A program made the position numbers and the translations under genes. This document shows positions 11,730-33,573 of a stretch of 64,000 nt of DNA, in pieces; position 1 is the first letter of the stretch, and each line of letters opens with the position of its first letter. The stretch is from Rhizophagus irregularis. Its lineage: Eukaryota. The notes below the pieces were generated by a model that saw nothing but the letters and a program-made list of their open reading frames with translations, was not told the origin of the DNA and ran no database searches. The stretch is from assembly GCF_026210795.1 (NCBI RefSeq), contig NC_089432.1:2976001-3040000 (forward strand), in the 5' to 3' direction.

Positions 11730-13238
11730 CTTATTTGTAATTAAATGTTGGTAAGTTGTTTGGACCAATCAGATCTTGTGGGCTAATCTGGCCCATGGGC
11801 AGTTTATAAGCTAGGATGTAGTGCACGCCCACTTAGCTTAGAAACTATGTCGATCATTTGGCTGGGGTGAAATCCTTCTAGTTAGGACCTTCCATATTCA
11901 TTTACTAATCAAAAACGCAATTTGTTATTATTCAACAAATTAATACATACCATAAAATATAAATATAGTTATAGTTACATTGAGATCATTAAAGGTGCTT
12001 CATTGATACTTGATGGTCCGTGCAAAGCACAGTACCCGATTCATGACGTCAGAATTGAGTTAGTACCCACCAATTTCCATCCACGTTTTTGGGATGTATT
12101 TAATTTTACTGCAGGAAATATATATTTAGTTTATTTTTTTCTCTTGATGCATTTAAATTATTTTTATATTTTTTTAAAAAAATTTTACACTTTTGATACC
12201 AGCCATACAATTTATTAAATCCTATAGATAAATTCAACCAATTTCCTTTCTATTTCTTTTAAATAACGATAATATTATAACTAAAATTTTTAACCGTATA
12301 AGTTCAGTGGTCATCGAAGTCGGTTCCCAGAGTGTTTTATACGTATGGATGATTTTTTTTTAGATATGTTAGCGTGAATTATTTACGTCTTTAAAATTCA
12401 TGGTATTCAATTTAATCATGTGTTATTGTTTTATAAATTATAAAATTTTGATTTTAAAGTAGTGTTTAATAAATTACTTTTTTATTTTTATTTTATATTA
12501 TTTTTATTTTATTTTTATTTTTATTTTTTTTACAGTATTTCTTTAAATAAAATTTTTTGACTCCGCCGGATTCAAATATGCTGGTCTCTATCATTAAACT
12601 TCTGTAATTTAACTTAAAAGTTATTGTTACGTTCGTATTATGAATATACAATAGAATTTTGGTAACTTTATACCATGCACAGTAGAGCTATGTCGACATA
12701 TGCAGTATTTTTTCGCTTCATAACTAACAATGATCAACACTAAATTCGATAAAACTAAGGAATGCCGAACTGGCCAGAAAAAATTTAAAGGTGAAGTACA
12801 TATTATTTGACATTGAATACCATATCGTTTGACCTTGAAGTACAAAACATTTAACTAATACTTATAAACCATTTTGCATTAATTGCAAACAATTTGGCAT
12901 TAAATGCAAATTATTTGTCAGTCATTAAATGCAAATCTTATTAATTTTAAAAATAATTTTCTTAAAAATGAAATAGACCTCCTTTAAGAATTACACATGA
13001 CTTCCAAAAAGAAAATCTCTTCATAAAATTACTCAAATTTACGCCATTTGAATTCTAACTAAATATGGAAAATTATTTCCACTTCATCATATTGTTTGAC
13101 CGTATTACAAAGGGTTTGATCGTAAAATCAAATTGTTTGACAGTAACAGTAAATCATTTGAACTTCATAAATGTCAAACGACGTCCCTATAAAAAATTTT
13201 CAGAAAAATGATCACGTGTCTGAGTTTCTTCGGAATAG

Positions 13239-14775: not shown

Positions 14776-14936
14776 TAGAAAAATGATCATTTATCGGGGG
14801 TTTTCCCAGAATTTTTTTTATAGGGCATTAAACTTCTTTAGCCCGGCGTGCCATATTACTAACTTTGCAATACGCAATTTTATTTATATTAAATTCTAAA
14901 ATTAATCCGCACTAAGAAATTTCTATTATTTTAACA

Positions 14937-15080
14937 ATGTCTAATAATGCTGAACTTAAGTTACTGGTAATTCAATTAAGTGGATTAATTGGATTAAAAA
15001 AGCTATTGCGAAAGCACATTAAATATTACGATTACCAATATTTTAATAATATCCAAGAAATTGGTTTCGGAAGTTTTGAA
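14937..15080 (+). pseudogene. 5' fragment of a TKL kinase gene, truncated at the junction with the Polinton-like element
   Basis: Reads ...KHIKYYDYQYFNNIQEIGFGSFE, homologous to exon 1 of the kinase starting at 63313; frameshifted and cut off at 15080. Confidence 0.75.
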
Positions 15081-15390
15081 GTTCGTGGCCAGAAAACTCT
15101 TCCCAAATAATGCAGCATATACTGCTAAGATAGCAAAGATTCGTGAATCATACAAAAATAAACAAGCTCTTTTAGACAAACTTGAGGCCCTCTTCGAGTT
15201 GTATTATAATGTAACTAAGGACTCATTAACAGGTCCTCCAAAGCAAGCTGTCACTATGAATGAGGCTGAGAAAACATTAGCAGAACTTCTTGCATAAGCG
15301 GCTCCTGTACAAATTTAGTTTATATTTTTTATCCATTTGTAATGGGCATACAGTAATTGAAGATGGCTATAGTATAAGTAACATAACATC

Positions 15391-15807
15391 ATGTTGGACC
15401 GATTACCAGTAGAAATAGTCGAACGCATTGTTGCAAAGATCCCAGATACTGACCTTATTGCAGCGAGTAAAGTAGATAGTGTGTGGTGGCAGGAGGTTCG
15501 TCAAGAAGTATATAAGAGATGGAAAAATTACGCTACTACAATTGGGCATGTCCAAGCTCTTGGAAAGCCGTTTGAAAAAGGGAATATTGACTGGATATCA
15601 TTTGAAGATGTAAACGACTTCTATAAAAGATGGATAGACCGCCTCACCGAGGATCAGCTTTATATTATAGAGAAAATGCTTAGAAATGGGATGGTCGTGG
15701 ACCCCCAAGAGAGGGAAACCATAGAGCATGCATTAAGTAAACAAAGATGGGGAGGCGACCCTTGGGGACTGAACTGGGAGTGGAACAAATGGACTCAACA
15801 GGAGTAG
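15391..15807 (+). CDS. Small F-box-like protein
   Basis: N-terminal LDRLPVEIVERIVAKIPDTDLIAASKVDSVW fits the F-box pattern LPxExxxxIxxxL..L....V...W. Confidence 0.7.
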   Translation: MLDRLPVEIVERIVAKIPDTDLIAASKVDSVWWQEVRQEVYKRWKNYATTIGHVQALGKPFEKGNIDWISFEDVNDFYKRWIDRLTEDQLYIIEKMLRNGMVVDPQERETIEHALSKQRWGGDPWGLNWEWNKWTQQE

Positions 15808-15814
15808 CTTATTT

Positions 15815-16012
15815 ATCAGGTATCCTCATATTTCTCGACAAGGACTGATGACCATGTAACCTTATCATCAGGTATCCTCATATTTTTTTACAAGGATTGA
15901 TGACCATGTAACCTTATCATCAGGTATCCTTGCATTTTTTAATAAGGACTGATGACCATGTAATCTTATCATCAGGTATTCTTGTATTTTTTGATAAGGA
16001 CTGATGACCGTG
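15815..16012. repeat. 52-bp tandem repeat, about 4 copies
   Basis: atcaggtat at 15815, 15867, 15919 and 15971; unit includes aaggactgatgaccatgtaaccttatc. Confidence 0.9.
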
Positions 16013-16074
16013 TCACTTGGTTATTGTAAATTGAAGGAAACTATTAGGTATGTAGACACATACAGAAAAAAGAC

Positions 16075-16653
16075 ATGTCTTACCCTTATATAGCTAACCC
16101 TATAACTGGACGTCCAATTATTATCGGTGGAGATACCTTTAATCGAATAGTTATGGAATCCCATGATTATATTGATGGAAGGCTTGTCCGTAGACAAACT
16201 GCACCTCCACCTGAAGAGCAATCTGTATATTTAAATACAGATACAGGACGTTATGTTCGACGTGGTACTAGAACATATCATGGACTGATTGAGAGTGACT
16301 ATGAGGTAGTTGAGGATTACTACCTTGTCCATTATGAAGAAGAGGCGCTTATAGAGAAAATCATCAATGAAACACGCTATAATGAGGAAAATCTTGATGG
16401 GCAGCGGTTAACTTTCAATGATATACAACAAATCAGGACTGCTATTCAGGCTGACCAAGATGAATATGATGATTTTATCTTACAGCAGGATATGACTGAT
16501 ATGACAACTATCGGTCCTTCCGGTCGTCCACAAACTTTGGAGGACCATACCCCGAGACTTGCAGAGCTTAATATTGAGTTGTGTAGGGAATGTCTCATGA
16601 CTGTAAGCCCAAGTGACTTAACGGACAAGTTGTGCAAGGACTGCTCCGAATAG
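16075..16653 (+). CDS. Hypothetical protein with two NPxTGR (2-cysteine-adaptor-like) motifs and a C-terminal CxxC-CxxC
   Basis: ANPITGRPIIIGGDTF, LNTDTGRYVRRGTRTY and CRECL...LCKDC. Confidence 0.55.
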   Translation: MSYPYIANPITGRPIIIGGDTFNRIVMESHDYIDGRLVRRQTAPPPEEQSVYLNTDTGRYVRRGTRTYHGLIESDYEVVEDYYLVHYEEEALIEKIINETRYNEENLDGQRLTFNDIQQIRTAIQADQDEYDDFILQQDMTDMTTIGPSGRPQTLEDHTPRLAELNIELCRECLMTVSPSDLTDKLCKDCSE

Positions 16654-16698
16654 TTACTTAATTTTGAATAATTCTTTTTTACATAAAGAAAGATAGCC

Positions 16699-17259
16699 AT
16701 GTCAACATCAATCGTAATAAACCAGTGCCAAAACTGTGGAGTAATCACTCCAAAAACAGCATATAGAGGATTATCCAGTGTATTATACAGACAGATTATA
16801 AAGAAGATTAGTGATGAGAATGATCCTCTACAAGCCTTGGGACTTGCTAGGGATAAGTTAGTTCAGATCATTCATCGGGGAAGTAATGTGGACTTTACAC
16901 GATTGTTTACACAAAGACTGGATATGAATATTATGGATGGAGAGCCATATGAAGATATTAGGAAGTGGCTTCTCGAACAGCTTATAGCCATAGGTTATGA
17001 CAGTGGAGAAATTGCTTTATATCAATTTCTAAGGGATACATATCCAGATGGTATTGACAAGCCTTTCACTACATTCTATGAGAACTATGTAAATCATATA
17101 AGTAATCCAATGACTAAGAACTTTGCTTCTCGTGCTTTAGGAGCAATAGGGTTGAAGGCTAAGATGTTAAGGATTGACTTTGAAGGCCGTAAAAAAAGTG
17201 CTATAATTCTTAGAGCTTCTGCAGACGAATTACTTGATATTCTCACAAGATACTATTAA
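16699..17259 (+). CDS. Hypothetical protein of the Polinton-like element
   Basis: 186-aa intronless ATG ORF with an N-terminal CxxC; its 3' end overlaps the convergent ATPase ORF. Confidence 0.6.
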   Translation: MSTSIVINQCQNCGVITPKTAYRGLSSVLYRQIIKKISDENDPLQALGLARDKLVQIIHRGSNVDFTRLFTQRLDMNIMDGEPYEDIRKWLLEQLIAIGYDSGEIALYQFLRDTYPDGIDKPFTTFYENYVNHISNPMTKNFASRALGAIGLKAKMLRIDFEGRKKSAIILRASADELLDILTRYY

Positions 17260-18466
17260 TCCCTACTTGTAATGCTCGACGGTCCATGTGGCTCTTAGAA
17301 AAGATTTGTAGAAGGACTTCAATACCTTCTATTATTTGTTTATTATCCAGAGGGCGACTAGACTTCAGGGCTTCATATCGGGAGAATAACTCCTTCACAT
17401 TCTCAGTTTTCAGAGTTTCAGTCTTTGCAGTCCTACCCTGTACTTTTGCTAAGAAATCCTGAAAGTCAGCTCCTATGGTCTTACCAGAGAGTCCATAAGC
17501 TTCCCGAAAGACATATTTAATCCAGGTATCTGCATTCTTGGCTAAGACACCAGGTACAAGTAAATGTTGACGTTCTTTAGGGGATGGAAATACCCGAGCA
17601 AATTCAATCAAGTGTCCACCTTTTTTTGCTTCAAATACAGCTTTCTGACCATAGGGACTAAACTTGGATCGAACTGTGATTGAACTGGGTTCAGACTGAG
17701 ATCGAACTGGATTCAAACTTGGATCAAACTGAGATTGAACTGAGATCGAACTAGAATTGAACTGAGATTGCTCTGTGATCGAACTGAGACTAGTATCCCA
17801 TCTTACTCGAATGGACAGTAGATCACTTTTGGACCGTCTAAGATCAAACACTACAAATTCACGTTGCAGAGTAAGATCATCAATTACTGGTGCTAATAAC
17901 TCTGATTCTTCTGTATATAGGCGGATGATTTTCTTGGTATCTGTAAGGCTCCCATGACCTCCATGCAGTGAGATGTAGTTAACATTTTCTCAAATAGCCT
18001 TAGGAATGGCAAAGAATCTTTGGGCTACATAAATACATGAAATATTTTTGTGTCGTCCATGTGTAAAGTAACCAGTGATGAGATCCTGGATTTTTTTAGG
18101 TGCATCCATCAGATCCTCGAAGATTACCACAGTAGCTTGAGTAGGGTCGAAGGAGTCAATCTCTGGAATCTCACTATGGGTTACTGCAGTGAATGGGATC
18201 TTCTCCTCTTCGAAAAAATCATGTACAACTGCCCACTTCGGCTCGTCAAGATATCTGCCAACTAAAAGTACTGCATCACATAGTACATACCAATTACCAT
18301 CCTCTTTTGCTTTCTTGTCACCCATTAACAAATTAATAATCATAGTTGTCTTACCTGAGTCTGAGCTACCTGCTACGGCTAATCGAAAGGGCCATGATGG
18401 AGCAAACTCATTGCCTTATCTTGAGTCGGTCGTGTACTCGTCCAAATTGTATACATAAAGATCCAT
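17243..18466 (-). pseudogene. A32/FtsK-HerA-type DNA packaging ATPase with two in-frame nonsense codons
   Basis: One frame from ATG 18466: MDLYVYNLD..R*GNEFAPSWPFRLAVAGSSDSGKTT (Walker A), VVIFEDL (Walker B), GRHKNISCIYVAQRFFAIPKAI*ENVNYI (A32 signature). Continues in frame into ORF 17243-17851. Confidence 0.88.
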
Positions 18467-18497
18467 TTGAATTTTATTCTAACTTAGTTTAAATACT

Positions 18498-19295
18498 ATG
18501 TCGACATCAACACCAATTCCAGTTTATACTCCTTCAGAACCTACTGGACCGCCTCCTGCACACTTGGTCAATGAAAAAGACGATGATGAATTAGTTAGAA
18601 TACTAAAGGCTCATGCAAATTTATTGACTACCAGGGGTCGTTTAACTGTTGATTCAGAGATACAGGAGGCAAATAATCAAATCAAACATATTATTAATAT
18701 ATTAATATATCGCTGTAAAGCAAAACATGAAGAACTTGGTATTACAAAAGATTTGTTAGTTTTTGCACAAGGTAAGATAAATGCATTTGATGAAACGTTT
18801 ACTAATTTAGAACGTCAATTAGTTATTATACGTGCTGCCAATGATAATTTCATAGAAGAAAACCATAACCTGCAAAGAGATTATGATACTATGGTAGAGC
18901 TTCGTCGACGGGCTATAGGTGAACGTAATCAGGCACGACATGAACATAATGTATTACAAGCAGATTATACTCAAGCAGTAAGGGATCGTAATGAGGCTCA
19001 AAATGCTGTGAATCGTGGTAATATCCTTTTAAATCATTGGCGGCTGAGGGCTACTCGGACTGGAGGACAACTTGTATTGGTTAATGCGCAACTTGGACAG
19101 GTTAATGCACAGCTAGCACATGCTAATAATAGGGTGCGTTTTGGGATTCAGACATTAGGGAGACTTAGAAATAGACTTTTTCAACAGATAGCTGCTTTTA
19201 GAATTCAGGTACAATGGTTTCGAATTAGACAATTGAACCCTCCTCCACCTCTTTTAAACAATCCACTAGAGACGATATGGCTACCACTGCGATAG
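18498..19295 (+). CDS. Coiled-coil protein, probably the N-terminal half of the Gag-like protein (frameshift near 19268)
   Basis: Heptad-like Q/N/R/E-rich segment ending in NPPPPLLNNP and overlapping the Gag start. The paralog at 23440-24739 has the equivalent junction in one frame (LQNNPPIIQQPIMAGYAPKKF). Confidence 0.65.
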   Translation: MSTSTPIPVYTPSEPTGPPPAHLVNEKDDDELVRILKAHANLLTTRGRLTVDSEIQEANNQIKHIINILIYRCKAKHEELGITKDLLVFAQGKINAFDETFTNLERQLVIIRAANDNFIEENHNLQRDYDTMVELRRRAIGERNQARHEHNVLQADYTQAVRDRNEAQNAVNRGNILLNHWRLRATRTGGQLVLVNAQLGQVNAQLAHANNRVRFGIQTLGRLRNRLFQQIAAFRIQVQWFRIRQLNPPPPLLNNPLETIWLPLR

Positions 19296-20731
19296 GATTG
19301 CCGATTTTTGAGGGTAAAGCTACTGATGATATTGATACATTTGTTAGGCTTTATATGGGTTATCTTGATACTATTAATCTTAACCCATACGCTGCTGGAG
19401 GGCCACCAGAGTCTTGGAAAAGAGCTATGGGTATACTTAGAAGCTGCATGGCTGGTGAAGCGGCTGAATGGTTTGATCGAGAAATTACAGGAAAAAATTG
19501 GGAACTTTCTGGTATCACTTCAGCTGGTGGAGCTAATTTAGCTGCTTTTGTAGCATTAGTAATACCAGAAGGTGCAGGAGGACCAAATGCAGGTACCTAT
19601 GTAAATGGGTCTGAAGCACGGACTTATGCTACAGATCCAGTTAATGCATTAGTAACTATTAGAGCAGCATTTATTCCTACTCATGATTTAATAGGTGGAA
19701 ATAAAGCTTGGGGAAGAGCTGGTGCTCGTCCGACAGATAGAGTTGCTCCAGCTACTGCAGATGCTGGTGTTGCTGCTGCTAATAATCATCCTATAGTTTT
19801 TCCAGGTATTAAACCTAACCAGGCGCTTTATTGGCTTAGAACACAATTTCCAACTATTTTAGATGAAAAGAAACGTATCCGTTTTAACAGTCTTTATCAG
19901 GAAAATGAGCCAGTTGATGCATTTTATAGAACTGTAAAGAGAGCTGGAAAATTACTAAAACTAACTGATGATCTTATTATTGACCAGTTCTTTAGAGGTC
20001 TTTCGGCTGATAATATTTTTGAAGCAGAAAGGTTTAGTAATCTTAATCCTGATGACTTGGTTAAACATCTGAGAAATTTAGAACGGAGAAGGGCTAAAAT
20101 GCGCTTGGGGTTACAAGATAGAAATCGACGACTTCAAGCAGATTACAGTGATGTAACTCAACCTCCGTTAGGAAAACAGGAACCTGTCGTACTGACATCA
20201 AAGTCATCTGGGGTTACTCAAGAACAATTACAAGAGTTACTTAAGACTCAAGCTGAGGAACTTACCAAGAATTTTCAGGTGCAATTTAAACAATTACAGG
20301 CTCGGCCAGTTCGTAATCCACCAGTCTATAGACAGCAGATTAAACCTGTTCGACCAAAACCACAGAGACGTGTTGTTCAGGATCCTCAGGATCCTGATTG
20401 GGATGATGGTTATGTAGATCATGATGTTGGTGATGATCCTGATGCTCCTGAATGGACTTTGGATGATCATCAAAATGCTATTGATCTTATTATGGGATAT
20501 AAACGTGGGACGTCTAAAATACTTACAAAACAACTTCAGAAGGCTAAAGATAGACGTGATGATCTGGATTTGGCCCGAGCAATGAGAAACCTCGATCTTA
20601 ATGATGATGCTATGGATATTGATACTGCGAGTTTTGGTGAAAAGGTAGAATTGAGAGAAAAAGATGGTGATGTCTATATGGTTCGTGTTGGGTCAAAAAA
20701 AAGTAGGTTCGAGTATCTCAAAACTTCTTAA
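19277..20731 (+). CDS. Ty3/gypsy-like Gag capsid-domain protein
   Basis: LPIFEGKATDDIDTFV (capsid N-terminal), CMAGEAAEWF, LYQENEPVDAFY (MHR-like) and DQFFRGL. Confidence 0.8.
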   Translation: MATTAIGLPIFEGKATDDIDTFVRLYMGYLDTINLNPYAAGGPPESWKRAMGILRSCMAGEAAEWFDREITGKNWELSGITSAGGANLAAFVALVIPEGAGGPNAGTYVNGSEARTYATDPVNALVTIRAAFIPTHDLIGGNKAWGRAGARPTDRVAPATADAGVAAANNHPIVFPGIKPNQALYWLRTQFPTILDEKKRIRFNSLYQENEPVDAFYRTVKRAGKLLKLTDDLIIDQFFRGLSADNIFEAERFSNLNPDDLVKHLRNLERRRAKMRLGLQDRNRRLQADYSDVTQPPLGKQEPVVLTSKSSGVTQEQLQELLKTQAEELTKNFQVQFKQLQARPVRNPPVYRQQIKPVRPKPQRRVVQDPQDPDWDDGYVDHDVGDDPDAPEWTLDDHQNAIDLIMGYKRGTSKILTKQLQKAKDRRDDLDLARAMRNLDLNDDAMDIDTASFGEKVELREKDGDVYMVRVGSKKSRFEYLKTS

Positions 20732-21443
20732 GTCGTCCCCAAATAAGACAGCAGTTAGCTCTTCTAGTGTGCCATTGAAAGGCAAAGCAACCCCTGTTAA
20801 GATTCCTGTGAAAGTTACTGGTAGTAAGTCTACACCTGCAAAAGCTGTTACTAAGAATGATTTATTAAGCCTGTTAAGGTCTGCAGACTTTAGGAAATTA
20901 CTCCGTGAGATTCTTCAGGAGGAGTTATTGTCTGCTAGAAAAGTCACAGAGATTCCAGAGGACCTAGTTGAGGAGGAACAAGAAGAGGATATCAGGGTAG
21001 ATGATCCTATGGATATTGACATAGCTCGTTTAGAGAATACTAAAGATCTTTTAGCATTGGATGGAGAGGTTAATGGAATAGCAATTCAGTGTTTAGCAGA
21101 CACTTGTGCTAATGCGTCTTTTATTCAGAGAGAAGCTGCTGAGGAATTAGGGTTGGATATTGACAAGAGTATTACATATAACATATCTGGTGCTTCAGGA
21201 ACAGGTAGGACATTCGGCATGGTAAAGGGAGTGACAATCAAACTTACCCCTGATTATGCTATCACTGAGGACCTTGCAGTCTTAAGTGGTTACAAGCATA
21301 GGGAAATTGGGTTAAGCCGAACGTGTCTGAAACGTTACAATTATGATGTCCATGAATCACGTGAACATATAGCCTTTACCTGTGATGGGAAGAATGTTTT
21401 TATCCCGATAGTTCCTGATGCTAATCGAGGGGATAAAAAATAA
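20694..21443 (+). CDS. Retroviral-type aspartyl protease, likely made by frameshift from Gag
   Basis: GEVNGIAIQCLADTCANASFI (DTG-like active site, here DTC), AEELGL, ISGASG flap and IGLSRTCL. Overlaps the Gag 3' end at an A8 run. The stop at 21443 is not followed by RT. Confidence 0.8.
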   Translation, partial: QKKVGSSISKLLKSSPNKTAVSSSSVPLKGKATPVKIPVKVTGSKSTPAKAVTKNDLLSLLRSADFRKLLREILQEELLSARKVTEIPEDLVEEEQEEDIRVDDPMDIDIARLENTKDLLALDGEVNGIAIQCLADTCANASFIQREAAEELGLDIDKSITYNISGASGTGRTFGMVKGVTIKLTPDYAITEDLAVLSGYKHREIGLSRTCLKRYNYDVHESREHIAFTCDGKNVFIPIVPDANRGDKK

Positions 21444-21468
21444 GACCCTTTAATTCTTCTATTTTTTT

Positions 21469-22596
21469 TTATTCCCAAAATTTGCGAATTAAGTCAGGGA
21501 CATATTCCTTCAACCGGTCAGCAGGTTCCCAAGTAGCCTCAGTGTCTGGATAGCGCTCCCACTTAACCAAATACTGGTCTTGACCTTTTCTAATGCGATG
21601 CCGAAGTATCTGCTCAGGAACAAATCTTTCAGGTTGTCCTCTTATCACAGAGTCAGGTGGAGGCTTTTCATTAATAGGAACTACTTGCAATTCCTTTCGG
21701 GTATATGCACATCTGGATACACCTAATCGACCATGTGGTCCATTAAGGAGATATGTAGGAGGCTGTTCGGGTGAGAGTATCATTTTTTTGATTACACGAA
21801 TGTTTGGGTTCCATCTTATGTCTCCTGTACGGAATTTTCCGTGAAGTTTATTACCGAGTACTGAGATAGGTTCATCTAACTTGACTCTGACACGTGCTCC
21901 TTCAGAGAGGACATCCGTCTTTTTTGACACTTTGGGTGATCCTGTCAGAATGTCTGGGGGATTTCTCTGCCAAAGTTCATTTACTTTACTCACTATATTA
22001 TGGAAATCTTCTGACCATTCCATGGATGTCACCCCGGTTTTCAACTCCTGTGCTACCATTCGTTTAAGAAGGGGTTCTTGGATGGCTTGGATAGCTCTTT
22101 CAGCATAAGATTGCTGTTTATGCCTTCCTGGCTCTCCGAACCTCATCATTACCCCTAGGCTGTTCAGGAAAAAATCACGTACCTGGTCGTTAGTGAATTC
22201 TGATCCGGAGTCTGTCTCCAGTCTGTGTGTTGGTGGCTTAATACGATTTCTTCTGTAGATTTTGATAAACCCGTTTAGAACTCTATTTGCAGTCTTATCC
22301 TTTAGGGGTTCTGCATCAACTCTCTTTCCTGCAACTTCCACCACTACGAGAAAATAGTGGAATCCTTTGGGGTCAACTGGCATCTCTGCAAGATCTGCCT
22401 GATGTGTTGCATTTGGTTTCCATACAATTACCTTTGGGCGTTCTGTTGACTTTTCCCTTAGAGGCTTTTTGTATAGGTTGTAGTGCTCTTCACCTTTTAG
22501 AATTCGTGCTGGTATTCCGGAGAGATTGTAGTATTTGTAATAATTCTCTAAATGCGACATATTACGACAAATTAAAGGAATGGTTTTAGACTTCAA
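21469..22596 (-). CDS. Polinton-type rve integrase with C-terminal chromodomain (likely ATG at 22560)
   Basis: HQADLAEM, ETDSGSEF and YAERAIQ (DDE); YTRKELQ; PEQILRHRIRKGQDQYLVKWERYPDTEATWEP (chromodomain). Confidence 0.92.
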   Translation of the reverse strand: MKSKTIPLICRNMSHLENYYKYYNLSGIPARILKGEEHYNLYKKPLREKSTERPKVIVWKPNATHQADLAEMPVDPKGFHYFLVVVEVAGKRVDAEPLKDKTANRVLNGFIKIYRRNRIKPPTHRLETDSGSEFTNDQVRDFFLNSLGVMMRFGEPGRHKQQSYAERAIQAIQEPLLKRMVAQELKTGVTSMEWSEDFHNIVSKVNELWQRNPPDILTGSPKVSKKTDVLSEGARVRVKLDEPISVLGNKLHGKFRTGDIRWNPNIRVIKKMILSPEQPPTYLLNGPHGRLGVSRCAYTRKELQVVPINEKPPPDSVIRGQPERFVPEQILRHRIRKGQDQYLVKWERYPDTEATWEPADRLKEYVPDLIRKFWE

Positions 22597-22604
22597 ATCT
22601 TAAA

Positions 22605-22925
22605 ATGACACGTTTTTACTGCCTAAAGTGCAAGAAGGAAACTGAGACGGCTAGTGAAATACAAGATATGACTACAAATGGGCGTTACCAGCTGCATGGT
22701 GACTGCACAATTTGTGGTATGCATAAGAATACTTTTACTGGAATAGACTGGGTGATCAAGAAGAAGACTAAGGAGAAAAAGAAAGAAACCGCTGCTAAGA
22801 GACAGCAGACGGCTTACAATCGGCAATGCAAAAAACTTGGACAGAAAATCTTAGATTCTGATGACGCGTGTAAACAGTGTATTGATAAATGCCTTAAGGA
22901 GGCAAAAAAGAGGAAGACGGATTAG
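22605..22925 (+). CDS. Small zinc-ribbon protein (DUF5679-like) with a basic tail
   Basis: FYCLKCKKETET...TTNGR...GDCTICGMHKNTF. Confidence 0.7.
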   Translation: MTRFYCLKCKKETETASEIQDMTTNGRYQLHGDCTICGMHKNTFTGIDWVIKKKTKEKKKETAAKRQQTAYNRQCKKLGQKILDSDDACKQCIDKCLKEAKKRKTD

Positions 22926-23439
22926 TACTGTCTTCTAAACTTATCTGGATATGCTCTATTCTCAATACCCATTGTTCAATTACTTATTTTTTCTGACGGG
23001 GGCGGGACGGGGTTGGTCTTACTGGCTTTATAGACCTTCTAGGGGCTTACCTGCTAACTTATCTGGTTTGCTATCTCACTGCTTCCAACAGATTATTAGA
23101 CGGAATCCTGACTTGTTCCAGATGTTCCGGATGTGGCAGATCTGGGGGGGGTAAAAATAAAACTTTTTCTGGGGGGATGTCCTCTCATATTTTTTCTGAA
23201 ACATCTGCCACATCTGCCACATCCGGGACAACCCTCTCATTATGTCCGTTATTCCTTCCTTTTCTATTGTTTTCTAGTTATTTGGTATATATATTTGTTC
23301 CATATGTTGTCCCAGATTGTGGCGGATATATGGGGATTCCTGATCCCCCGTAGGGGGGATATAGGTACTGCGAGGCCATGAGGCCGAGGTGGGTGGAGCG
23401 GTAGCGAGACCCACATCCAGCCCGACGACCTTGTCCATA

Positions 23440-24739
23440 TACCAGCCCCTCCACGAAATTGATTCGCCGCTACAGCCTGTATAGCGCCATTATTCAAAGC
23501 ATTAAAAGCAGCAAGATTGGCCACACCAGTATTATCCAGAGGATTTACACATTCCCAATTTTTTCCTTTGATATGTGTTTCATACCAATCTCTAGCATCA
23601 TCTTCAAGTAAAGTCTCAAAGATCCCATGAATCCTAACACAAGTTCTAGCATTAGCAGCAGGATCAAGTCCAGCAGACTCACACCATTGCCTGAATTCTT
23701 GAAGCCAAAGTTCTGGATCTTCACCAGATACTCCTCTAAATTTTTTAGGTGCATATCCTGCCATTATCGGTTGTTGTATTATCGGAGGGTTATTTTGTAA
23801 TGCTAGAATCTGTTGATTCAAATTATTGACCTGATTTTGCAAATTTTGACCATGATTGCGACAGTTTAAAAATTGCCCTCTCCATGCTCAAGCTTGCTGA
23901 ATGATACCATTAGCCCGCCTTCTACTTCACTCTGTTTCAGTATTATAGCGCTGTAATAATCTATGAGCATTTCTTCTACTCTCATCACGTTCTCTCTGGA
24001 CATTAGCTAGTTGGATTTGACTGTTAGCAAATTAAGCCTGGATGTTAGCCAATTGGATCTGAGTATTTTGTGAAAGGGCTTCCCAATGTTGGCGATGACG
24101 CACTTCATTTGCATATGCATCCTCATAAGTACGTCTTGTTCTCAGTATAGTAGCACGTGTATTATTAAGTTCTTGTCTAAGATATTCTTCACGGTTATGT
24201 GCATCATCTAACAAACCTTCAAGTCTATCCTCCATATTATCTTGATCTTCTATAATATTTCGCAACTCATTAGCATATCAGATAATGGCATCAAGACTAT
24301 CATTTGCAGTGTTAAATAAATGATTTATATGAGGGTGTGCTGCAATAGTTGTACGATCAAGGTGAATACGAATACCAGCTACACTATTTGCTATAGTTGT
24401 CTGATTATTTAAGATTTCTGTAATAGGGTCAGGAGGAATTGCTGCCATGTTTTTCTGTTGTCTATTAGCAAGTTCTTTTATTCGATCTTTGAGTTGAATA
24501 TTTAGAGTATCAACTTCAATCAGCTGACGTTCTAATGCTTGAAGCCCTTCCTTTTTTAGTGATGCCATTTCTAATGCTTTCTTAAGCTTTGCACGCAACT
24601 CAGCATTTTTTTGCCTAAGTTCTTCTATCTCAGATTCATGACCCTTGATTACACCATACAGGTATTTTATATATTGCTCTTGTGATTGCAATGTATGTGC
24701 AAGCTTTGTAATCTATGTCTTTAACGATGTATCTTCCAT
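23440..24739 (-). pseudogene. Second coiled-coil + Gag-like capsid gene, disrupted and 3'-truncated
   Basis: ORF fragments 24278-24691, 24032-24265 and 23264-23842 are separated by stops or frameshifts. APKKFRGVSGEDPELWLQEF and DWYETHIKGKNWE...ANLAAFNAL match EWFDREITGKNWE...ANLAAFVAL of Gag 1. Confidence 0.8.
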
Positions 24740-25785
24740 TGCCAGTTCCACAGATTTTTATAGACCCTACATTTAATAAACAAATCGAACAAAATTATAT
24801 CCTTCAACAAATCTATTAGCATCCATGTGGATATTATCGTACTTCTGAAAAACTTTGGGCTAAAGTGCAAGCTGAGGGCCATGATTTTAACATATCTGAT
24901 ATTACAGAGTGGTTGCATAAACAGGCTATATGGCAAATACACTCACCTATACCCAAGTATGTTCCACAGGTTTCTTTTAATAAGATTACTTGACCAAATA
25001 TGTATCATCAAGCAGATATCTTATATATGCCCTATGATACTGTAGATAGAAAGCTGTATAAATACTGTCTGAATATTGTAGATGTTGCTAGCCGATATAA
25101 AGCTTCAGTACCTCTAGAAGATCGCAGCTCTGCACGTGTTGCTAAGGCATTTAAAAAGATTTATGGTAAAGCAGACTGCCCGCTTATTTGGCCAAGAGTT
25201 TTACAAGTAGATGGGGAATCAGAATTTAAGGATGAAGTTATCCGATTAATGGATGAAAAAGGTGTGCGTAGTAGGGTAGGTACTACTCATAAGAGTCAGG
25301 CTATTGTTGAACGGTATAATCAAACTTTAGCAGAGAGACTTTTCAAAATACAGGATGCAAAGGAACTCCTTACAGAAGGTGTGAATACTGCCTGGGTTAA
25401 GAATCTTTCTGATATTGTGAATGAGTTAAATAATTCTAATACTCGTCTGCTAGGTATGTCTCCAGTTGAGGCAATCCAGAAAGATCAAGTGTATGCACTA
25501 CCTTCAAAAATTCGGAAGGATAGACCTGTAGGTGCAGAAGAAATACGTTTACCAGCTGGTTCTCTTGTGAGATACTTACTTGATAACTCAGATTACCAAG
25601 GTAGGAGACATGTAACTGATCCAATATGGTCTACTAAAGTTTATACAATTGAATCTTCCACAGTTGTTGATGGGCAGCCGGTTATATATAGGTTATCTGA
25701 TGTACCTAAAAAAATATTTACTCGAGAAGAATTATTAGTTGTGCCATCTGATACTATGCTGCCTCCTACTCATATATTATATTAA
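24715..25785 (+). pseudogene. Second Polinton-type rve integrase, no chromodomain, two in-frame stops
   Basis: Single frame from ATG 24715 with TAG 24817-24819 and TGA 24991-24993. Motifs HQADILYM, LQVDGESEF, IVERYNQT and FTREELL. Confidence 0.88.
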
Positions 25786-28700
25786 TTTTCAAGTTGTGGT
25801 ATCCTATAGTCTCCATGTGCATACATTGTGATATTATCTTGTGCAATCCATTTTTTATCATCCATAGGGGATAACCCCACCTTTGACATTTCTATAACAT
25901 TTATGGCATGTCTATCAGATCGGATTGCTTTAAAGGTGACTGTATCATTATGTTTAGGATCAAAGAGTGCCTTATTATACCGCTCATGGTGGAACTCTTT
26001 TTTAACTACCTTTGAGGGGACACCTTTAGCTTTACAGATACCATGTTTTGGATTGGTAGTCTCATCCTTTACCTTGAGAATGGAATACATTTTGGGACGG
26101 AGGCCAATAAATTCTGCTATAACTGCTCCATTACATTCATCCTTAAATTTCCCTGGGATTTTCATATTTATGTCAGTCTTATCACCTAATGCTTTTCGTA
26201 CAGGATGATCTTTAGGATAATCACTAAAGTCAAATTGGTCTGCCATATCTATGAGGTCTGCATTGATATCCTCAGTTTGGATTTGTACAAGAAGTGAGTC
26301 TGTATCTGTATAACATAAATGGATTTTTTTACCATATCGTACTTTAAGAGTATCATAGTAGAATTGATACATACAGAGCTTTGAGAGGTCAAGCACACTC
26401 ATACTCACATATGTTGGATGGTTAAGCATTACCTCCACTTTTTGTCGGTGGATTGCAACAAGATTTTCTGAGAATATTTTACGACCCTTGAATGCAGGAT
26501 CTAAGGTAAGCTTTTTATATTTCTTGGGATGGGTTTGGGGTTATACTACTGAGACACGTACACGTTTCCTGAGATTTTCCATAGTTTTACCAAATACACT
26601 ATTATTCATGAGTTTATAGAAGTCCTTCTCAAAATTATTCTTAGCCTTAGCACGTTCGGCGGTGTTAAATTCTATATATGGTTTCATCCATGGAGCCTGC
26701 TTGAATTTTATAGCTTCTTGATTACTAAGCCCTGGCTAACATAATACTGGAGATTTCTATAATGAACTACATATTCATCCTTATCAAATAGGTTAAGGAT
26801 GAGCTTATCTGTGGGTGTATATCGTTGTCCTGAGCGTGTTATTATTTCCTGCTGCTTTTTACTAAGCCATTCCTTCTTAACCTTCATTCGTTCTGGTGCA
26901 AGGGGGTAATCTGTGTGTTGTGAATGGAGGGCTTGGGGATATTCCAGTTTAACTTTAAGGATATATCCTTCAGAAGAATCGTCTGGTATTTCATTACTCT
27001 CTATTTGTTTTTGAATGTTAGATAACTCGTTTTTCTCCTTTACCCAGTGGAAGTTACCTGTAGGTAAGTATTGCAACATGGCCCATCTATATAGGTTATT
27101 TGCATCTAAGTATAGAATAGATGACTTGGACTTTTCTGCAGTCCATTTACCTTCTCCCATATCTGGGTTATTTGCACGAGCATATCGTTTACTTACCATA
27201 GAGATTCCACCACGTAATCCTTGTTCTACCATCATGTACATATCCTGGTCAGTTATAAGATCCAATCTTTGTCTTGTCATAAAGAATAATGCATCCCATG
27301 CAAAGCCTGGTGTTGAATAGTACCAGAGAGGATCTAACCCATATTTTTTCAAGGCCATTTCTCAGAAATTCTGAAATATATCGGCTAGTAGAAGGACGTC
27401 AGTTTTGAGATAAATGTCATGATAATTTTGCATTATTTTACATCCTGCTTTTTCCCATACATACTGTGCATATTCGTATTCTTTATCACTAATGTGGATT
27501 CATTAAGTTTGCTATAGAATGCTCCTTTAGGTGGTAAACTAGTTTTCTCGAACTTTTTCCAGTCATCCATATATTCATACGGGTAGACACTTTTCTTAAG
27601 ATAAATCTCGAGTAATTCAGGTGGTATTTGACTTCGTGTTATCTTAAAGTTTTCGGGATGTGCAAAGCATCTACCTGCATCAATTCACCATAAGTGTTGT
27701 GGATTACTACATTCTTGTGCTCTACATTTTTCTGCGCCTAGGTTGGATGCTAATTTGTCGAGACTTGATTTCATGAATTGTAAGCTGTCTATAAATCAAA
27801 GGGAACCTAACTTGAATGCCATATACTTTTCCATGTTATAAGGGATAGGATCGATATCATCCTCACATTCCATTGCACCAATTCCTTGCATAATTATATG
27901 TCCATCATATCCTGATAAATTGTGAAAGATTACTGGGATATGCATTTCACGAGGTTTTATGGATAAGTCAAGATTACATCCTCTATGTGCTGCACCTCGA
28001 TACCTTCCTGTAATATGGCAGTGGTCTCTTACTTTATTTCCATCTAAGGGGTTGCGACATATCCAGCAGTTTATTGCATTATCATAACTTACTTGCTCTT
28101 GGGTTGTTAATGGCATCATTTCCATTGGGTTTCTGAATTCATTACGGATTGCTTCAGCCTCATTTAGCATTTCGATTACAAATTTTTGTGCTGCATTTTT
28201 TCCTGTAAATATCTTCTGTGATTCACTTACACCATCATATCTTACCTTAATATATGAGTATGAGCAGGGGATTTGCTCTTGTACTTTCTTGGTTTTCTTA
28301 TCTTTGTCTTCATCTGTGGGTAGTATGTCCATTACTAGGGCTTCAAAGTCTGCAACAAAGTAATATGGGACTTGCATGTGGTGTTTCCAGTTCTTGAATT
28401 CATATATATCATTTCCTTTCTTTACTGATGGCATTCGGTCTGCTTGTGGGGTTTTCTTTAATCCTCGACATATTGCTACATATTTGTCATGGATTTCTTG
28501 TTGATGTGTGAAGTGGAAGATACATCATCGGCAGACAAATATTGCATGTCCATTTTTTGTACGTTTATTTACTAAACGGCTTATATTCTTAATCCAGCAA
28601 TAGTGCTGCTTTTCCCCATTACTGATAAGTACTAAATCTATTATTTTACAGCCCTCTGCATCATCCCTATCACACAGATCGAAATGCTAAAAATCGGCAA

Positions 28701-29860
28701 AAAAAATGGCGCAAAAAGCAGTGGCTATTCTTGGCTATTCTTGGCTGTTTTTGGCTATTTACAAATTAACCTATACTATTTGTAAATAGTTTATACAAAT
28801 TTGCGAATAGTTTATGTGATTTGCACCATTTTTTTTGCCTATTTTTGATCATTTGACGTGTGTCAGTAACATATATTGGACATAGGCGGTGATCACGCCA
28901 TTCACAGATGCAGAGGGCAATAGTTGGGTTCTGTCGCTCAAATCTTCTTAGAATTACCTCATCAGCTTGTACTGGAAATTCGATACCTTCAAAGTTTAAC
29001 TCATTTACATACTCCTTATACTTGGAGATTCTTTCTGCATTCTTTTCTACTGGATGTAATGCTGCTAGGATTGCCCACTGAAAGCATTTGTCATCATCAT
29101 TAGCTGGATTTACTACTCCCTTTTTCGTGGCAAGATCTTTTGGGAGTGGTATATATCCTGCTCCTGTGGGTGGTTGGAATTGCGAGATTTCTATAAATAT
29201 TTTTTCTACATGATAGAATTCCCAACCTGATCCGTAATTTACATAGTCTTCTACTTTTTGCATGATTCTTGCTAATGCAAAGTTAAATGTACCATTAATA
29301 TCTGTTGATGGTAGGATTGGCATATTGCGAGTTTTAAATGGTATGTTATATCTGTAGATATACTCTACTCCATCATCTTCACTAAAGTTACCATCTCCGA
29401 ATAATCCCTCAAGGTAAGAATCTAAACGTCTTATTGTGGCAAATATTCCAATTCTTACCTTTATTGATTCCAATCGATTTCTTTCATCCTGAAGAATATT
29501 CTGGATTGTTTGACTGTGTGCTGTAAGAAATGAAGCATAGTCATGCTCTTCAGGTGTTCCTATAGCAATATCAGCCGTAAAGTTTGAGTCTGTTAACTCC
29601 TTTCCTATACGTACCTGATCACGACGTTCAAAGACTACCTCATAATGTGGGTCTGGGTCAATTTGCATCATGTGGGTTATCTCTTCATTGGTTACCGCTG
29701 CTTGTGCTTCACGGATTTGGTGGATTTCATCCTCATATTTTTGCAATTTTGCATTTGAGCGGGGATATGGGATGGACTTGACAGGTACCTCCTTGAGTTC
29801 AGCTAGAACTGATCGGGTGACTTGTCTGTGTTGGGCACTTCTTGCTTGATGTGTTGACAT
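25782..29860 (-). pseudogene. Protein-primed family B DNA polymerase (pPolB), disrupted by stops, frameshifts and a MITE
   Basis: N-terminal GSGW and NDDDKCFQWA...HY region; ExoI VADFEA; endonuclease VII-like CWIC..VRDHCHITGRYRGAAHRGCN; ExoII FHNLSGYDGH; ExoIII KTDVLLLAD; PolA YLDANNLY; Pol[12 protein letters not shown]; PolC YTDTDS; KAKGV. Confidence 0.95.
28673..28862. mobile_element. CAC-ended MITE inserted in pPolB, 3-bp TSD TCA
   Basis: tca|cacagatcgaaatg...catttgacgtgtg|tca. Removing it restores PIYVTDRDDAEGCKIIDL. A sister copy lies inverted at 35311-35510. Confidence 0.9.
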
Positions 29861-30011
29861 CTTGTAAACTTTTTATACTCCTCTTTTATTCAATTAGATT
29901 TTTTCTGAAAATAAAATTAATTGTCTGCCTACTTTATGAGGGTAAAAAAAAGAGGGAGACAGATTAGTACTGTCTTCCTAAACTATTCCTCACCATCTGA
30001 GTCATCGGGAT

Positions 30012-30502
30012 TAGGGATGGCAACGGTCGGTCATGGTCGGTCATCGGTCGGTCATAACCGGTCAAAAACCTTTGACCGACCAACCGACCGTTTGACCGAC
30101 CGTTTGGCCGATCATTTTTTTTATATTTTCTCAGCGTTTTTATTAAGGAAATTGAAAAAACGTGCGAAAACGTTTTTTTTTATTAAATTATTAATAAAAA
30201 ACGTTTTCGCAACGTTTCTATTAAAATAATTAAAAAAACGTTGCGAAAACGTTTTATTTTAATTAAATTACTAATAAAAACGTTTTCGCAACGTTTTTTG
30301 TTAAAATAATTAAAACCGTTTGCGAAAAACGTTTTTTAAAATTAAATTATTAATAAAAAACATTTTCGTGACGTTTTTTATTAAATTTTTCATACAAAAA
30401 TTTGGTCGGTCAAACGGTCGGTCAGAAGTCTTGACTGACCGATATCGGTCACGGTCATGACCGGTCATAATCGGTTAATGACTGTGACCGTTGCCATCCC
30501 TA
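30012..30502. mobile_element. hAT-type MITE, 8-bp TSD ATCGGGAT
   Basis: atcgggat|TAGGGATGGCAACGGTC...GACCGTTGCCATCCCTA|atcgggat, with internal ggtc/gacc repeats. Confidence 0.92.
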
Positions 30503-30568
30503 ATCGGGATTGTCATCCGAGTCACTGAGCACATCCTCGTCCTGATGTATTCTCTATCCTTAAGTAAC

Positions 30569-30997
30569 TTATAGTTGTAAGCTACAACGGCGAATAGCTT
30601 CTTTTACCATAATATGCTCTACTGCGGCATTTGTTCTCTCTTTACAAGCCTTTTGATATGCCTCCCATTCAAATTCATGGAGGATACCCTCCTCCTCCAA
30701 TGATTGGCCAAGAGCATCATTTGCTTTTTCCTTCTTTTCTACTGCCCTGTCGTATGCCTCCTTGACTTTTTTATGCCACTTCCAGATTACTCGTTCAGCT
30801 TTAGCTCTCCAGATTGGGCTGACTTCTAGAAGATGTGTCCTGAAATTTCTACTTGGAATGTATTCCAGGATATGGCCCACAAGTTCGGGGATTACTGATA
30901 CTGCGTACGGGGTTTGGTGGCTTTTTAGGATCTCCCTATTAAGATCGGAGACTGTGCAGCCAAAGATTGATGCCAACTTTTCCACGGTATATGCCAT
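30569..30997 (-). CDS. Small F-box-like protein
   Basis: VIPELVGHILEYIP...LLEVSPIWR followed by a helical segment. Confidence 0.6.
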   Translation of the reverse strand: MAYTVEKLASIFGCTVSDLNREILKSHQTPYAVSVIPELVGHILEYIPSRNFRTHLLEVSPIWRAKAERVIWKWHKKVKEAYDRAVEKKEKANDALGQSLEEEGILHEFEWEAYQKACKERTNAAVEHIMVKEAIRRCSLQL

Positions 30998-31189
30998 GTT
31001 ATGTACTGTTTATCTGTATAGTTACTTGGTACCTACCTTTTATTTAATTACATTTTTTCTCGGTATAAGGGTAATTGCTTGCCTTGCTATTCCGCTCTAT
31101 TGACTCCATAGCTGGTTTCCTGAATGGGTTAATATTTCCTTACCTTTTTTGGCTCCGTTAGCTTTGAAATCCTATTTCTTGTTCGGTTG

Positions 31190-31502
31190 GGGGGTAAGTA
31201 GGTGAAAATATTAATGAACGATTTAGATTATGAAATAAGTAGGATATAAGTGAATTAGATTATGAGATAAGTAGGATATAAGTAAGTAAAAATATAAAAA
31301 AGGTGATATAAGTAGGTGAAAAATGTAAAAAGGTGACCAGGATTGGACCCACAGCCAGTGGAAGAGCAACGGGGATAGCAAAAAAAAGGTTGTCAGAATT
31401 GGACCCACAGCCGGTGGGAGAGCAACAAGGGAATAGCAAGAAAAAGGTAACCAGGATTGGACTCCGAGGAAAGTGAGCCAGAACTGGCATTTATATACTA
31501 CT
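31190..31502. repeat. Subterminal repeats and right terminus of the Polinton-like element
   Basis: Repeated (a)taagtagg(a/t) motifs, ~57-bp units with attggac at about 31342, 31398 and 31456, and terminal ACTACT. Confidence 0.7.
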
Positions 31503-31898: not shown

Positions 31899-32324
31899 TA
31901 GGGATGGGGTCGGTTCAATTATGTAATTTTGAGCAGTTTTTGGAACTGATCAAAATCTCGTGAGTTTCGAACTTATATGAGCCAAAAATCTTATTGGGAA
32001 TAGAGAAACACTAATATTTTTACAATAAATAAAAAAAAAGAAAATTTATAAGTCAAAACAATTTTTAATAGCTTTTAAAAATTGAACCGCATCAGTTCCG
32101 AACCGGTTCTAAAAACCGGTTCAAAATATGATCAACATCAAAATTATAATGATAATGAACCAACTATTGATTGTTAACCAATCAAAATTTTTTTAATTCA
32201 TAATCAATATATGTTCAACTTGTGTCTTTAATTTGACACATGTAGCTCATATTTTTTTTAATGGGAACTGACGTGGAACTGACGAGGAACTGAAATAAAA
32301 CCGAACGAACCGTCCCCATCCCTA
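31899..32324. mobile_element. hAT-type MITE in a Tnp2 exon
   Basis: actacgaa|TAGGGATGGGGTCGGTTC...GAACCGTCCCCATCCCTA|actacaaa (8-bp TSD with one mismatch). Confidence 0.85.
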
Positions 32325-33275
32325 ACTACAAAGCCATATCCTGTCATGTTCTGGTGATATTCCTGCCCTATCCAAAGTTATGTGCCTATCTGGCCATAAT
32401 GCTTACTATGGATGTCGTTTTTGTTATTTATGTGGAATATATTCCAGTACAGCTAAACATATTTATTTTCCACTGCAACCACCATGCGGATATGATGGAA
32501 CTAATTATGATCCAAACAATTTGCCAATGCGCTCTCACGCCAGCTATCTTCAAGATATTGAAGTAGTAGAAAATAGAGGTAGGAATAGAATAATGCATGA
32601 ACGAGGTAAACTTTGATACTTTGATTTGTATAATTATAGAATATTTATGAATTAATTAATAAAATATTTAATAATAGGTGTAAATGGTCGTAGCATCTTA
32701 TTGGAATTACAATCAATAGATTTTCCTGCATCATTTTCAATAGATATCATGCATGCACTTTTTGAAAATATAGCTCCACATATGTTTCGCCATTTTAATA
32801 GAAAGTTTTTTAACAATAAAGAACTTAATGATACTGATTATAAAATTTCATCTGACAGCTGTAATGAAATTACAAAAATAATTGAACAAAATCAAAAAAA
32901 CATGCCAATGGGATTTGGACGACCTCCTATTAATATTTTAAAACATCACTTTGCTTTTAAAGCAGAAGATTGGTACAATTGGATAGTTTTATATTCACTT
33001 CCACTTCTCCACAATTATTTGCCTACAAGGTATTATATTTTAAATTAATTGGTTATTTCAGTTATTATACAATATTAATTAATTTACTTTAAATTTTTAG
33101 ACATATAAATGGATGGGCAAGATTTATTAGGGTGACTCAATTGTGCCTTGAACCAACTATTTCTAGGCAAGAACTTGAAGAAATTCAATTAATTTTTATT
33201 AGATTCATTCATTACTATGAGAAGTAAGACCTTATTATATTATATTCCATCTTTTTTTCATTTGTTGATAAATAT

Positions 33276-33573
33276 AGGACCTTGGATATCTAATATAAAG
33301 GTCATAATGGACTTTTGGCCAAAAACACCCCTTTTTGCTGAAACTCAAAAAATCGTTTTTTGTAAATATCTCAGCATCCAGTAATTCAATTTTAATGAAT
33401 TTTTTTTTTATTTTGTAGCCCTCATTTAGCTCTACAATTTAAAAAAAAGTTCATCAACATTGGACCACTGGATGCCGAGATATTTACAAAAAATGATTTT
33501 TTGAGCCCCTGAAAAATGGGCCAATCTGCCGAAAGTGTGACTTATGACCTGTTTTGGAGATATCCGGGGTCCT
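33276..33573. mobile_element. MITE in a Tnp2 intron
   Basis: ataaatat|aggaccttggatatct...agatatccggggtcct|ataaatat, plus an internal inverted repeat. Confidence 0.75.

Follow-up and report, generated by a model that had tools for sequence, protein, structure and literature searches.

Gag and retropepsin genes as a probable resident module of mavirus-like and Polinton-like elements in Rhizophagus irregularis

We analyzed a 64,000-nt window of the Rhizophagus irregularis genome (assembly GCF_026210795.1, contig NC_089432.1, positions 2,976,001 to 3,040,000; coordinates below count from the first nucleotide of this window). A block at 15–31.6 kb has a G+C content of 35–44%, against 24–30% in the adjoining flanks. 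This block consists of two decayed elements lying next to each other, family B and family A (Table 1). Family B has genes for an A32-type packaging ATPase, a coiled-coil protein (coil), Gag, a retropepsin, an integrase with chromodomain and a DUF5679 protein; family A has genes for Gag, an integrase and a long Polinton-type protein-primed DNA polymerase B (pPolB). As judged from gene order and content in relatives, the Gag and protease genes (gag-pro) are very probably a resident, conserved module of elements that carry pPolB, ATPase and integrase genes and no visible jelly-roll module. A sequence-only reading of the block had described a single compact Polinton-like element with Gag and protease where a jelly-roll capsid module is expected; most of its gene calls stood, while the single element gave way to two.

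Pfam-type matches supported the A32 ATPase, the retropepsin, two integrases with rve domains and the DUF5679 protein of that reading (E-values in Table 1). Its two Gag-like proteins, Gag1 of family B and Gag2 of family A, are both of the capsid (CA) type and are about 30% identical to each other. Among all 81 window frames of at least 55 amino acids (aa), none matched reverse transcriptase (RT), RNase H, jelly-roll or adenain families. We found no direct repeat resembling a long terminal repeat (LTR) around gag-pro, either in the window block or in five relative loci. The short spacings from which residence had been argued are exact: 31 bp from the ATPase start to the start of the Gag unit, and 25 bp from the protease stop to the integrase stop.

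A metagenome scan with the Gag alignment gave 14 loci out of 270 pattern matches; gene orders were counted only in loci long enough on the relevant side. The ATPase is head-to-head with coil-Gag in 6/6 loci reaching that far (L001, L002, L003, L004, L005 and L011), the protease follows Gag in 5/5 loci and the convergent integrase comes next in 4/4. Convergent homologs of integrase 1 in L002, L004, L012 and L014 are 58–65% identical to it. Loci L002, L003, L004 and L014 make one lineage (95–100% nucleotide identity) and are not independent; L012, with 39% Gag identity, independently shows the order Gag-protease-integrase. Gene order is kept in relatives with Gag identity from 39 to 93%, and gag-pro is on this account resident, as had been claimed, rather than a nested LTR retrotransposon.

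An intact family B map was combined from L003, L002 and L014, with overlaps of 95–100% identity; it would span at least 13.8 kb, with intergenic gaps of at most 232 bp. L003 starts with a terminal inverted repeat (TIR), followed by a superfamily 3 (SF3) helicase (DUF5906, E 3.2e-22), a 624-aa pPolB (PF03175, E 1.8e-6), two small open reading frames (ORFs), the ATPase (with a deletion in L003), the coil and Gag. L002 continues with the protease, the chromo-integrase, DUF5679, a 115-aa ORF and an inverted stretch 100% identical to the L003 TIR. Its Gag and Gag-Pro frames are open, an example of naturally intact genes. The TIRs are at least 658 bp long on both sides, and L014 lengthens the match to 659 bp. 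As other ORFs occupy the map and the gaps are this short, there is no room for an RT or a jelly-roll capsid gene, although three small ORFs (115–211 aa) were not folded and a penton-sized fold is not fully excluded. Relatives with a major capsid protein (MCP) and penton in place of gag-pro, or a gag-pro bounded by LTRs and linked to RT, had been named as the observations that would speak against residence. The intact map has gag-pro, 0/49 frames of the mapped loci matched RT, RNase H, jelly-roll or adenain families (RT and RNase H: 0/130 frames of window and mapped loci together), and 0/38 Gag representatives scanned (the 34 longest and four others) contained an RT or RNase H family. In R. irregularis itself, two contigs (35 and 50 kb) each carry Gag-Pro and a short pPolB under accession numbers that nearly adjoin (GET56661-65 with GET56669; GET67062 with GET67074-76); a third shared contig and one ATPase-pPolB pair have accessions of different series, which are uninformative on adjacency.

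By its predicted structure, Gag1 is a two-domain retroelement-type CA. The model built from 46 sequences reached a mean predicted local confidence (pLDDT) of 89.5, compared with 68 for a 13-sequence model. In a structural search of 48,161 chains, capsids of retroviruses, retrotransposons or Arc filled the top 39 rows. The best single-domain match was the CA C-terminal domain (CA-CTD) of PEG10 (Z 10.6, root-mean-square deviation (rmsd) 2.3 over 84 residues), the best match across both CA domains was copia (Z 9.6, rmsd 9.1 over 160) and the first unrelated row had Z 4.3. The Atlas assignment for Gag1 was Retrotrans_gag (0.93), with a modest count of shared features. The CA N-terminal domain contains an insertion at residues ∼72–178. 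Gag1 homologs (199 matches in two subfamilies) are 97% identical in R. irregularis records. The whole Gag family has 324 representatives, the longest of 893 aa among the best 150 of the 324. The midpoint-rooted tree places the Gag1 clade apart from Gag2-like clades, a split which indicates that the Gag family is old. Prediction of a three-copy CA complex scored 0.00 with the alignment not used, and is no evidence either way.

Some further features of Gag are described here as observations in their own right. The insertion (19490–19810 in the window) is ∼100 aa long, rich in Ala, Gly and Asn, and is confidently modeled with strands and helices of its own. Coil and Gag appear to exchange partners at their overlap: compared with window positions 18498–20731, L007 has a coil 92% and a Gag 46% identical, and L001 has a Gag 93% and a coil 44% identical. 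A (P/A)MD(I/V)D motif occurs in the Gag tail (20600–20625) and again before the protease domain (21000–21025), in most relatives as well; it may be a marker of cleavage sites. Ty3/gypsy Gag has a similar motif. Just inside the right TIR, a stand-alone ORF of 106–115 aa (L002:7582–7899, L014:3167–3511) resembles the CA-CTD; its matches are proteins in which CA-CTD-like stretches recur (P0354, P0383 and P0353). This ORF could be a candidate copy-number or restriction factor.

The junctions on both sides of Gag are conserved as well. The coil frame ends as xWLxxx-stop just past the Gag ATG in 12/12 sequences examined. Gag ends at a run of 9–10 As in 7/7 relatives (8 As in the window copy), and the protease is in the −1 frame to Gag in all five relatives containing it. 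Of the 120 Gag homologs listed, 84 terminate in the protease C-terminus or a close variant, as counted over the 40 commonest endings shown. Two candidate signals were rejected: a TTTAAAC slippery site at the coil/Gag junction, which is not conserved, and an RNA stimulator behind the poly-A run, where folds are weak. Gag and protease are mostly under purifying selection, with dN/dS of 0.18–0.39 in 7/9 Gag pairs and 0.13–0.42 in 4/4 computable protease pairs (a fifth is saturated); the integrase has 0.10–0.32.

The two-element structure was examined by aligning contigs from four public sequencing runs (X1, X8, X12 and X13) to the window. Contig depth was not taken as copy number: X1 shares the mutations of the window copy, and its depth along the block, between 7 and about 5,700, suggests uneven amplification. 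Contigs have loose ends before 15077 in X8 and X12, i.e. family B extends leftward in other copies. Mixed flanks begin directly after 23429 in 2/4 runs (X1 and X12), and this position is therefore an element end; it coincides exactly with the point where Gag2 of family A is cut (23430). Gag2 runs beyond this break in 3/4 runs (X8, X12 and X13), and the extension agrees with the full-length Gag2-protease model P0261. The 5′ part of Gag2, integrase 2 and the long pPolB, which define family A, are held by single contigs in X1, X12 and X13. The long pPolB had been counted with the ATPase-Gag1-Pro unit. A broken copy of it is present, as reported, but it belongs to family A: tblastn with the long pPolB of the window found nothing in the intact relative L003, and gene models of R. 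irregularis and Diversispora connect a short pPolB to frames at 15076–15276 and 16105–16329. These models place the ATPase-Gag1-Pro unit in a family with a short pPolB, lost here. Family B has thus lost its pPolB here and abuts the cut Gag2 of A, most likely through insertion into the Gag2 gene. The left end had been described as missing and the copy as decayed, and both hold: family B lacks helicase, pPolB and left TIR, and its ATPase frame has two in-frame stops. The window holds only one end of each element, that of family A being a candidate. The AGTAGT-type terminus proposed earlier is plausible (ACTACT at 31497–31502) and falls to family A; the hexamer occurs six times in 19 kb, and there is no loose end at 31502 among the rows listed.

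Mavirus has a jelly-roll MCP, a penton and a cysteine protease, and in family B the place of these virion genes is taken by the Gag CA and the retropepsin. What family B shares with mavirus and with the elements known as pMVRE group 1 is a short pPolB (624 aa in L003, 617 aa in mavirus, motifs alike by eye), a DUF5906 SF3 helicase, an integrase with rve domain and chromodomain, DUF5679 and TIRs. By pPolB size, motifs compared by eye, gene content and hosts, family B would fit pMVRE group 1. In the accessible part of PMC13215967, TIR elements of Glomeromycota are catalogued in this mavirus-related group, many from Rhizophagus clarus at 13–14 kb, and the fungal lineage is taken for probable plasmids that lack structural proteins. 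The strings ‘gag’, ‘retro’, ‘aspart’ and ‘ATPase’ do not occur in its main text (figures may label a protease). In its supplementary file 5, retropepsin_like occurs together with pPolB 57 times, with RT_LTR five times and with MCP once; Retrotrans_gag accompanies pPolB eight times.

Family A resembles Polintons of Glomus intraradices (Polinton-1_GI / P_Gi1.1 and P_Gi1.2) in its long pPolB, rve integrase and AGTAGT-type end; it has in addition coil-Gag-protease (P0261). Host and size, not a comparison of sequences, are the grounds for equating it with Polinton-1_GI. Table S1 of PMC4028283, to the extent available, has P_Gi1.1/Polinton-1_GI and P_Gi1.2 as negative for MCP, penton and cysteine protease, and P_Gi1.2 as positive for an ATPase. 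No A32 ATPase was seen for family A, whose sequence ends at the cut Gag2; the family may lack one, which would make the ATPase optional. Among the Polinton hallmarks, protein-primed PolB (long in A, short in L003 for B) and the rve integrase are present, and long TIRs occur in family B relatives. Family B has the A32 ATPase shared by Polintons and virophages, with no frame matching the families of their double jelly-roll MCP, penton and cysteine protease; family A is incomplete in the window.

With Ty3/gypsy, copia, PEG10 and Arc the module shares the two-domain CA fold, the retropepsin and the −1 gag-pro junction; a CCHC knuckle is found in some members. Unlike Ty3/gypsy, the elements described here lack RT, RNase H and LTRs, a stop codon closes the protease frame, the integrase is separate and antisense, the CA N-terminal domain has the ∼100-aa insertion and the replicon is based on a DNA polymerase. 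Cruciviruses and bidnaviruses unite the capsid of one virus lineage with the replication module of another, and caulimoviruses keep dsDNA made by RT within a Gag-related shell. We know of no system in which a Gag shell is combined with protein-primed DNA replication and an A32 ATPase. The arrangement had been noted as one without a known description. No description of a Gag-bearing pPolB element was found in the literature searched (original Polinton papers and Repbase may mention these ORFs); the elements themselves are probably known already, as capsid-less lineages (Polinton-1_GI and pMVRE group 1). It seems that neither the resident Gag-protease module nor its meaning has been recognized in print, with the retropepsin named only in a supplementary domain table. 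The accessible part of bioRxiv 10.64898/2026.06.19.733378 notes A32 ATPases of Glomus/Rhizophagus and does not contain ‘gag’; in bioRxiv 10.64898/2026.10.13.758929, supplements outside the scope, nothing on the subject matched.

The explanation we favor, with some reserve, is that the Gag gene of a Polinton-like element was the insertion site of a mavirus-like element, and that in both families a resident Gag and protease replace the jelly-roll particle module. A genome-packaging role of Gag seems fairly probable. Based on the known roles of these protein families, the element would be copied from its TIR ends by the protein-primed pPolB, with the SF3 helicase taking part in family B, and inserted by its own rve integrase. 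Gag would be made in excess and Gag-Pro in small amounts via −1 slippage on the poly-A run; the protease would then mature Gag, and Gag would form a Ty3/copia-like shell around the linear DNA-integrase complex. Such a shell could carry the element between nuclei or hyphae of the coenocytic fungus. In the least certain step, the retained A32 ATPase would load DNA into the Gag shell. By a rough volume estimate, 13.6 kb of dsDNA fits a sphere of radius 20–23 nm at 45–30% packing, which is near the inner size of T=9 retrotransposon shells. At such dense packing a loading ATPase would be useful.

Whether the elements amount to dsDNA viruses of Glomeromycota, i.e. Polinton- and mavirus-type protein-primed replicons with a Gag-protease shell swapped into two polymerase lineages, one of which keeps the A32 ATPase for loading ∼14 kb of DNA, we regard as an evenly balanced question. 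A cross-realm capsid swap is likely; viruses of this kind would have Varidnaviria-type genomes, Ortervirales-type capsids and no reverse transcription. A jelly-roll capsid, an A32 ATPase and a cysteine protease are usually seen as one inherited module, and Gag shells as bound to reverse transcription. Here a conserved, selected Gag-protease occupies the place of the jelly-roll module in two unrelated pPolB lineages called capsid-less in print. If particles are shown, the capsid would have been exchanged across virus realms, and the elements would be a candidate small dsDNA virus in fungi, as well as a vehicle for DNA transfer among nuclei of arbuscular mycorrhizal fungi. Particles containing element DNA would make the arrangement categorically new. 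Expansion of Mavericks in arbuscular mycorrhizal fungi is reported in the part of PMC11952901 available.

Several observations weigh against this interpretation. A32 ATPases are, to our knowledge, known to work with jelly-roll capsids only. The tight structural match of Gag1 is confined to the CA-CTD, and Foldseek puts the same capsid families on top with E of 0.004 or weaker. No CCHC knuckle was found in the 120 proteins of the Gag1 search, and one is present in 10 of 144 further representatives. No strong RNA structure, only weak folds, lies downstream of the poly-A run, and the protease could be initiated separately at a conserved Met ahead of its domain. Without a strong hairpin there, ribosomal slippage, polymerase slippage and separate initiation are all possible routes to the protease. 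Two close pairs of Gag genes have dN/dS of 0.78. The intact map is a composite of overlapping contigs rather than one molecule, and scans of IMG/VR with Gag, ATPase, the ATPase alignment, the short-pPolB alignment and the integrase found no relative. For family A, the absence of an MCP would depend on the presumed match to Polinton-1_GI. A match in GTDB was rejected as unrelated, being a 30-residue Walker-A stretch in a 70%-GC bacterial contig.

The sequence-only reading had already proposed a chimeric element with a Gag-Pro particle module; the conservation of Gag-Pro and the lack of a visible jelly-roll agree with it, while Gag forming the particle stays an inference. A resident and selected Gag-Pro might instead leave the genome unpackaged and serve as an intracellular scaffold, target integration or restrict LTR retrotransposons, the element being a naked linear plasmid or transposon. 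The stand-alone CA-CTD-like ORF of L002 and L014, the missing zinc knuckle of Gag1, the likely-plasmid status given to the fungal lineage in the part of PMC13215967 at hand and the possibility, mentioned in the consulted part of PMC8547959, that Gag-like proteins steer the choice of integration sites all point this way. Still, both CA domains, a low-level frameshifted protease and a packaging ATPase are retained together in divergent copies, which is the make-up of a particle module, and restriction would need just one domain; we consider a non-packaging role rather unlikely. DNA might also travel in jelly-roll capsids given in trans by a giant virus or a related element, with Gag shells carrying RNA or proteins only. 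Helper-supplied capsids would explain the ATPase, whose motifs are intact, and the accessible parts of PMC10640383 and PMC13215967 report an endogenous giant-virus region in R. irregularis and co-occurrence of pMVREs with giant viruses, respectively. However, none of the loci showed an MCP partner. Loss of the MCP in Polintons usually goes with loss of the ATPase (PMC4028283, portion available), so its retention beside Gag needs explaining either way; helper dependence seems quite improbable.

The remaining two alternatives concern the block itself. One element comprising both Gags, both integrases and the one pPolB would agree with the deep coverage of the entire block in all four runs and with one X1 contig that bridges the 23429 junction without differences, which counts against two elements. 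However, X1 has the stop codons particular to this copy, and the contig is thus likely of the same haplotype. The loose ends after 23429, the continuation of Gag2 past the break in X8, X12 and X13 and the different, short pPolB of family B largely refute the single element, which we hold very unlikely. Nesting of a decayed Ty3/gypsy retrotransposon within a Polinton, comparable to the Ngaro elements of endogenous maviruses, has precedents: Gag-bearing retrotransposons inside virophages (PMC8547959, consulted part) and RT_LTR with retropepsin in five pMVRE records (PMC13215967, supplementary table). Against it, no RT, RNase H or LTR was found, the integrase is on the opposite strand, and the junctions are conserved at 39–61% Gag identity with open frames under purifying selection. 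For family B, conserved synteny refutes nesting, and this alternative is hardly credible.

Table 1. Features of the family B and family A elements in the window
Feature	Position	Strand	Remarks
Family B remnant	15077..23429		TIR element of mavirus-like type (short pPolB), right-hand 8.35 kb only; without helicase, pPolB and left TIR
3′ end of ORF following the short pPolB in other copies	15076..15297	+	R. irregularis models P0449 and P0454 fuse short pPolB to this frame (89–91% identity)
F-box-like ORF	15391..15807	+	Pfam F-box E 0.0046, under curated cut-off
52-bp tandem repeats	15804..16011		Behind F-box-like ORF
2-cysteine-adaptor-like ORF	16075..16653	+	PF08793 E 0.0027; Diversispora model P0450 fuses short pPolB to a 47% identical frame
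Small conserved ORF, likely D5-type winged-helix piece	16699..17259	+	22% identical same-strand homolog upstream of ATPase in L002/L003
A32-type packaging ATPase	17243..18466	-	Pox_A32 E 1.7e-8; two in-frame stops in window copy
Coiled-coil ORF	18498..19295	+	Final codons overlap Gag1 ATG
Gag1	19277..20731	+	CA N- and C-terminal domains, ∼100-aa insertion, long tail ending at poly-A run
Retropepsin	20655..21443	+	DTCA motif; Asp_protease_2 E 1e-8
Integrase 1 (rve and chromodomain)	21469..22560	-	Convergent on protease
DUF5679 gene	22605..22925	+	E 8.9e-18; same place in L002 and L014
Non-coding right end of family B, TIR-like	22930..23429		Short internal repeats; TIR at equivalent place in L002/L014
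Gag2	23430..24739	-	Coil fused in-frame to CA; cut at 23430; full-length model P0261 goes on into DTGS protease
Integrase 2 (rve, no chromodomain)	24757..25785	+	In-frame stops
Long Polinton-type pPolB	25782..29860	-	Disrupted by stops, frameshifts and a miniature inverted-repeat transposable element (MITE)
194-bp MITE inside pPolB	28672..28865		Not in other copies (joint 28671–28866 in 3/4 runs); second copy at 35310–35510
hAT-like MITE	30012..30502		8-bp target duplication; not in other copies (empty-site joints in run contigs)
Small family A ORF	30572..30997	-	No Pfam match
Short repeats and ACTACT	31330..31502		Candidate, probable right terminus of family A; depth drops beyond about 31.7 kb

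The window ATPase is 83% identical to P0202 over 396 aa, and its Walker A, Walker B and GRH motifs are intact or nearly intact in 21 aligned relatives (of 247 matches). An 11-bp tandem repeat lies within the ATPase frame (17661–17813), at a place where relatives have variable insertions. For the small ORF upstream of the ATPase, the Atlas assignment Pox_D5 (0.84) is a lead only. The long pPolB of family A matched DNA_pol_B_2 (E 0.0018) on one fragment only, with polymerase motifs visible in the frames; its pieces had no match among PDB sequences and phage records.

We found no sequence likeness between the ends of families A and B. A 39-bp block is common to both families (22904–22941 and 29946–29984), at the ends of the DUF5679-type frame and of a small convergent frame, and occurs in other runs too. 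The consensus of loose ends after 23429 starts with A in both runs, a weak hint that family B has TG...CA rather than AG...CT termini (23420–23432; L003:195–260). The left junction of the block is formed by a long repeat (11870–13238 and 14776–15080), with an inverted copy 37–41 kb away at 51612–53265. Beyond the block, 32300–34600 contains pieces of a likely CACTA-type transposase (DUF4218, E 0.0047), unrelated to the Gag finding.

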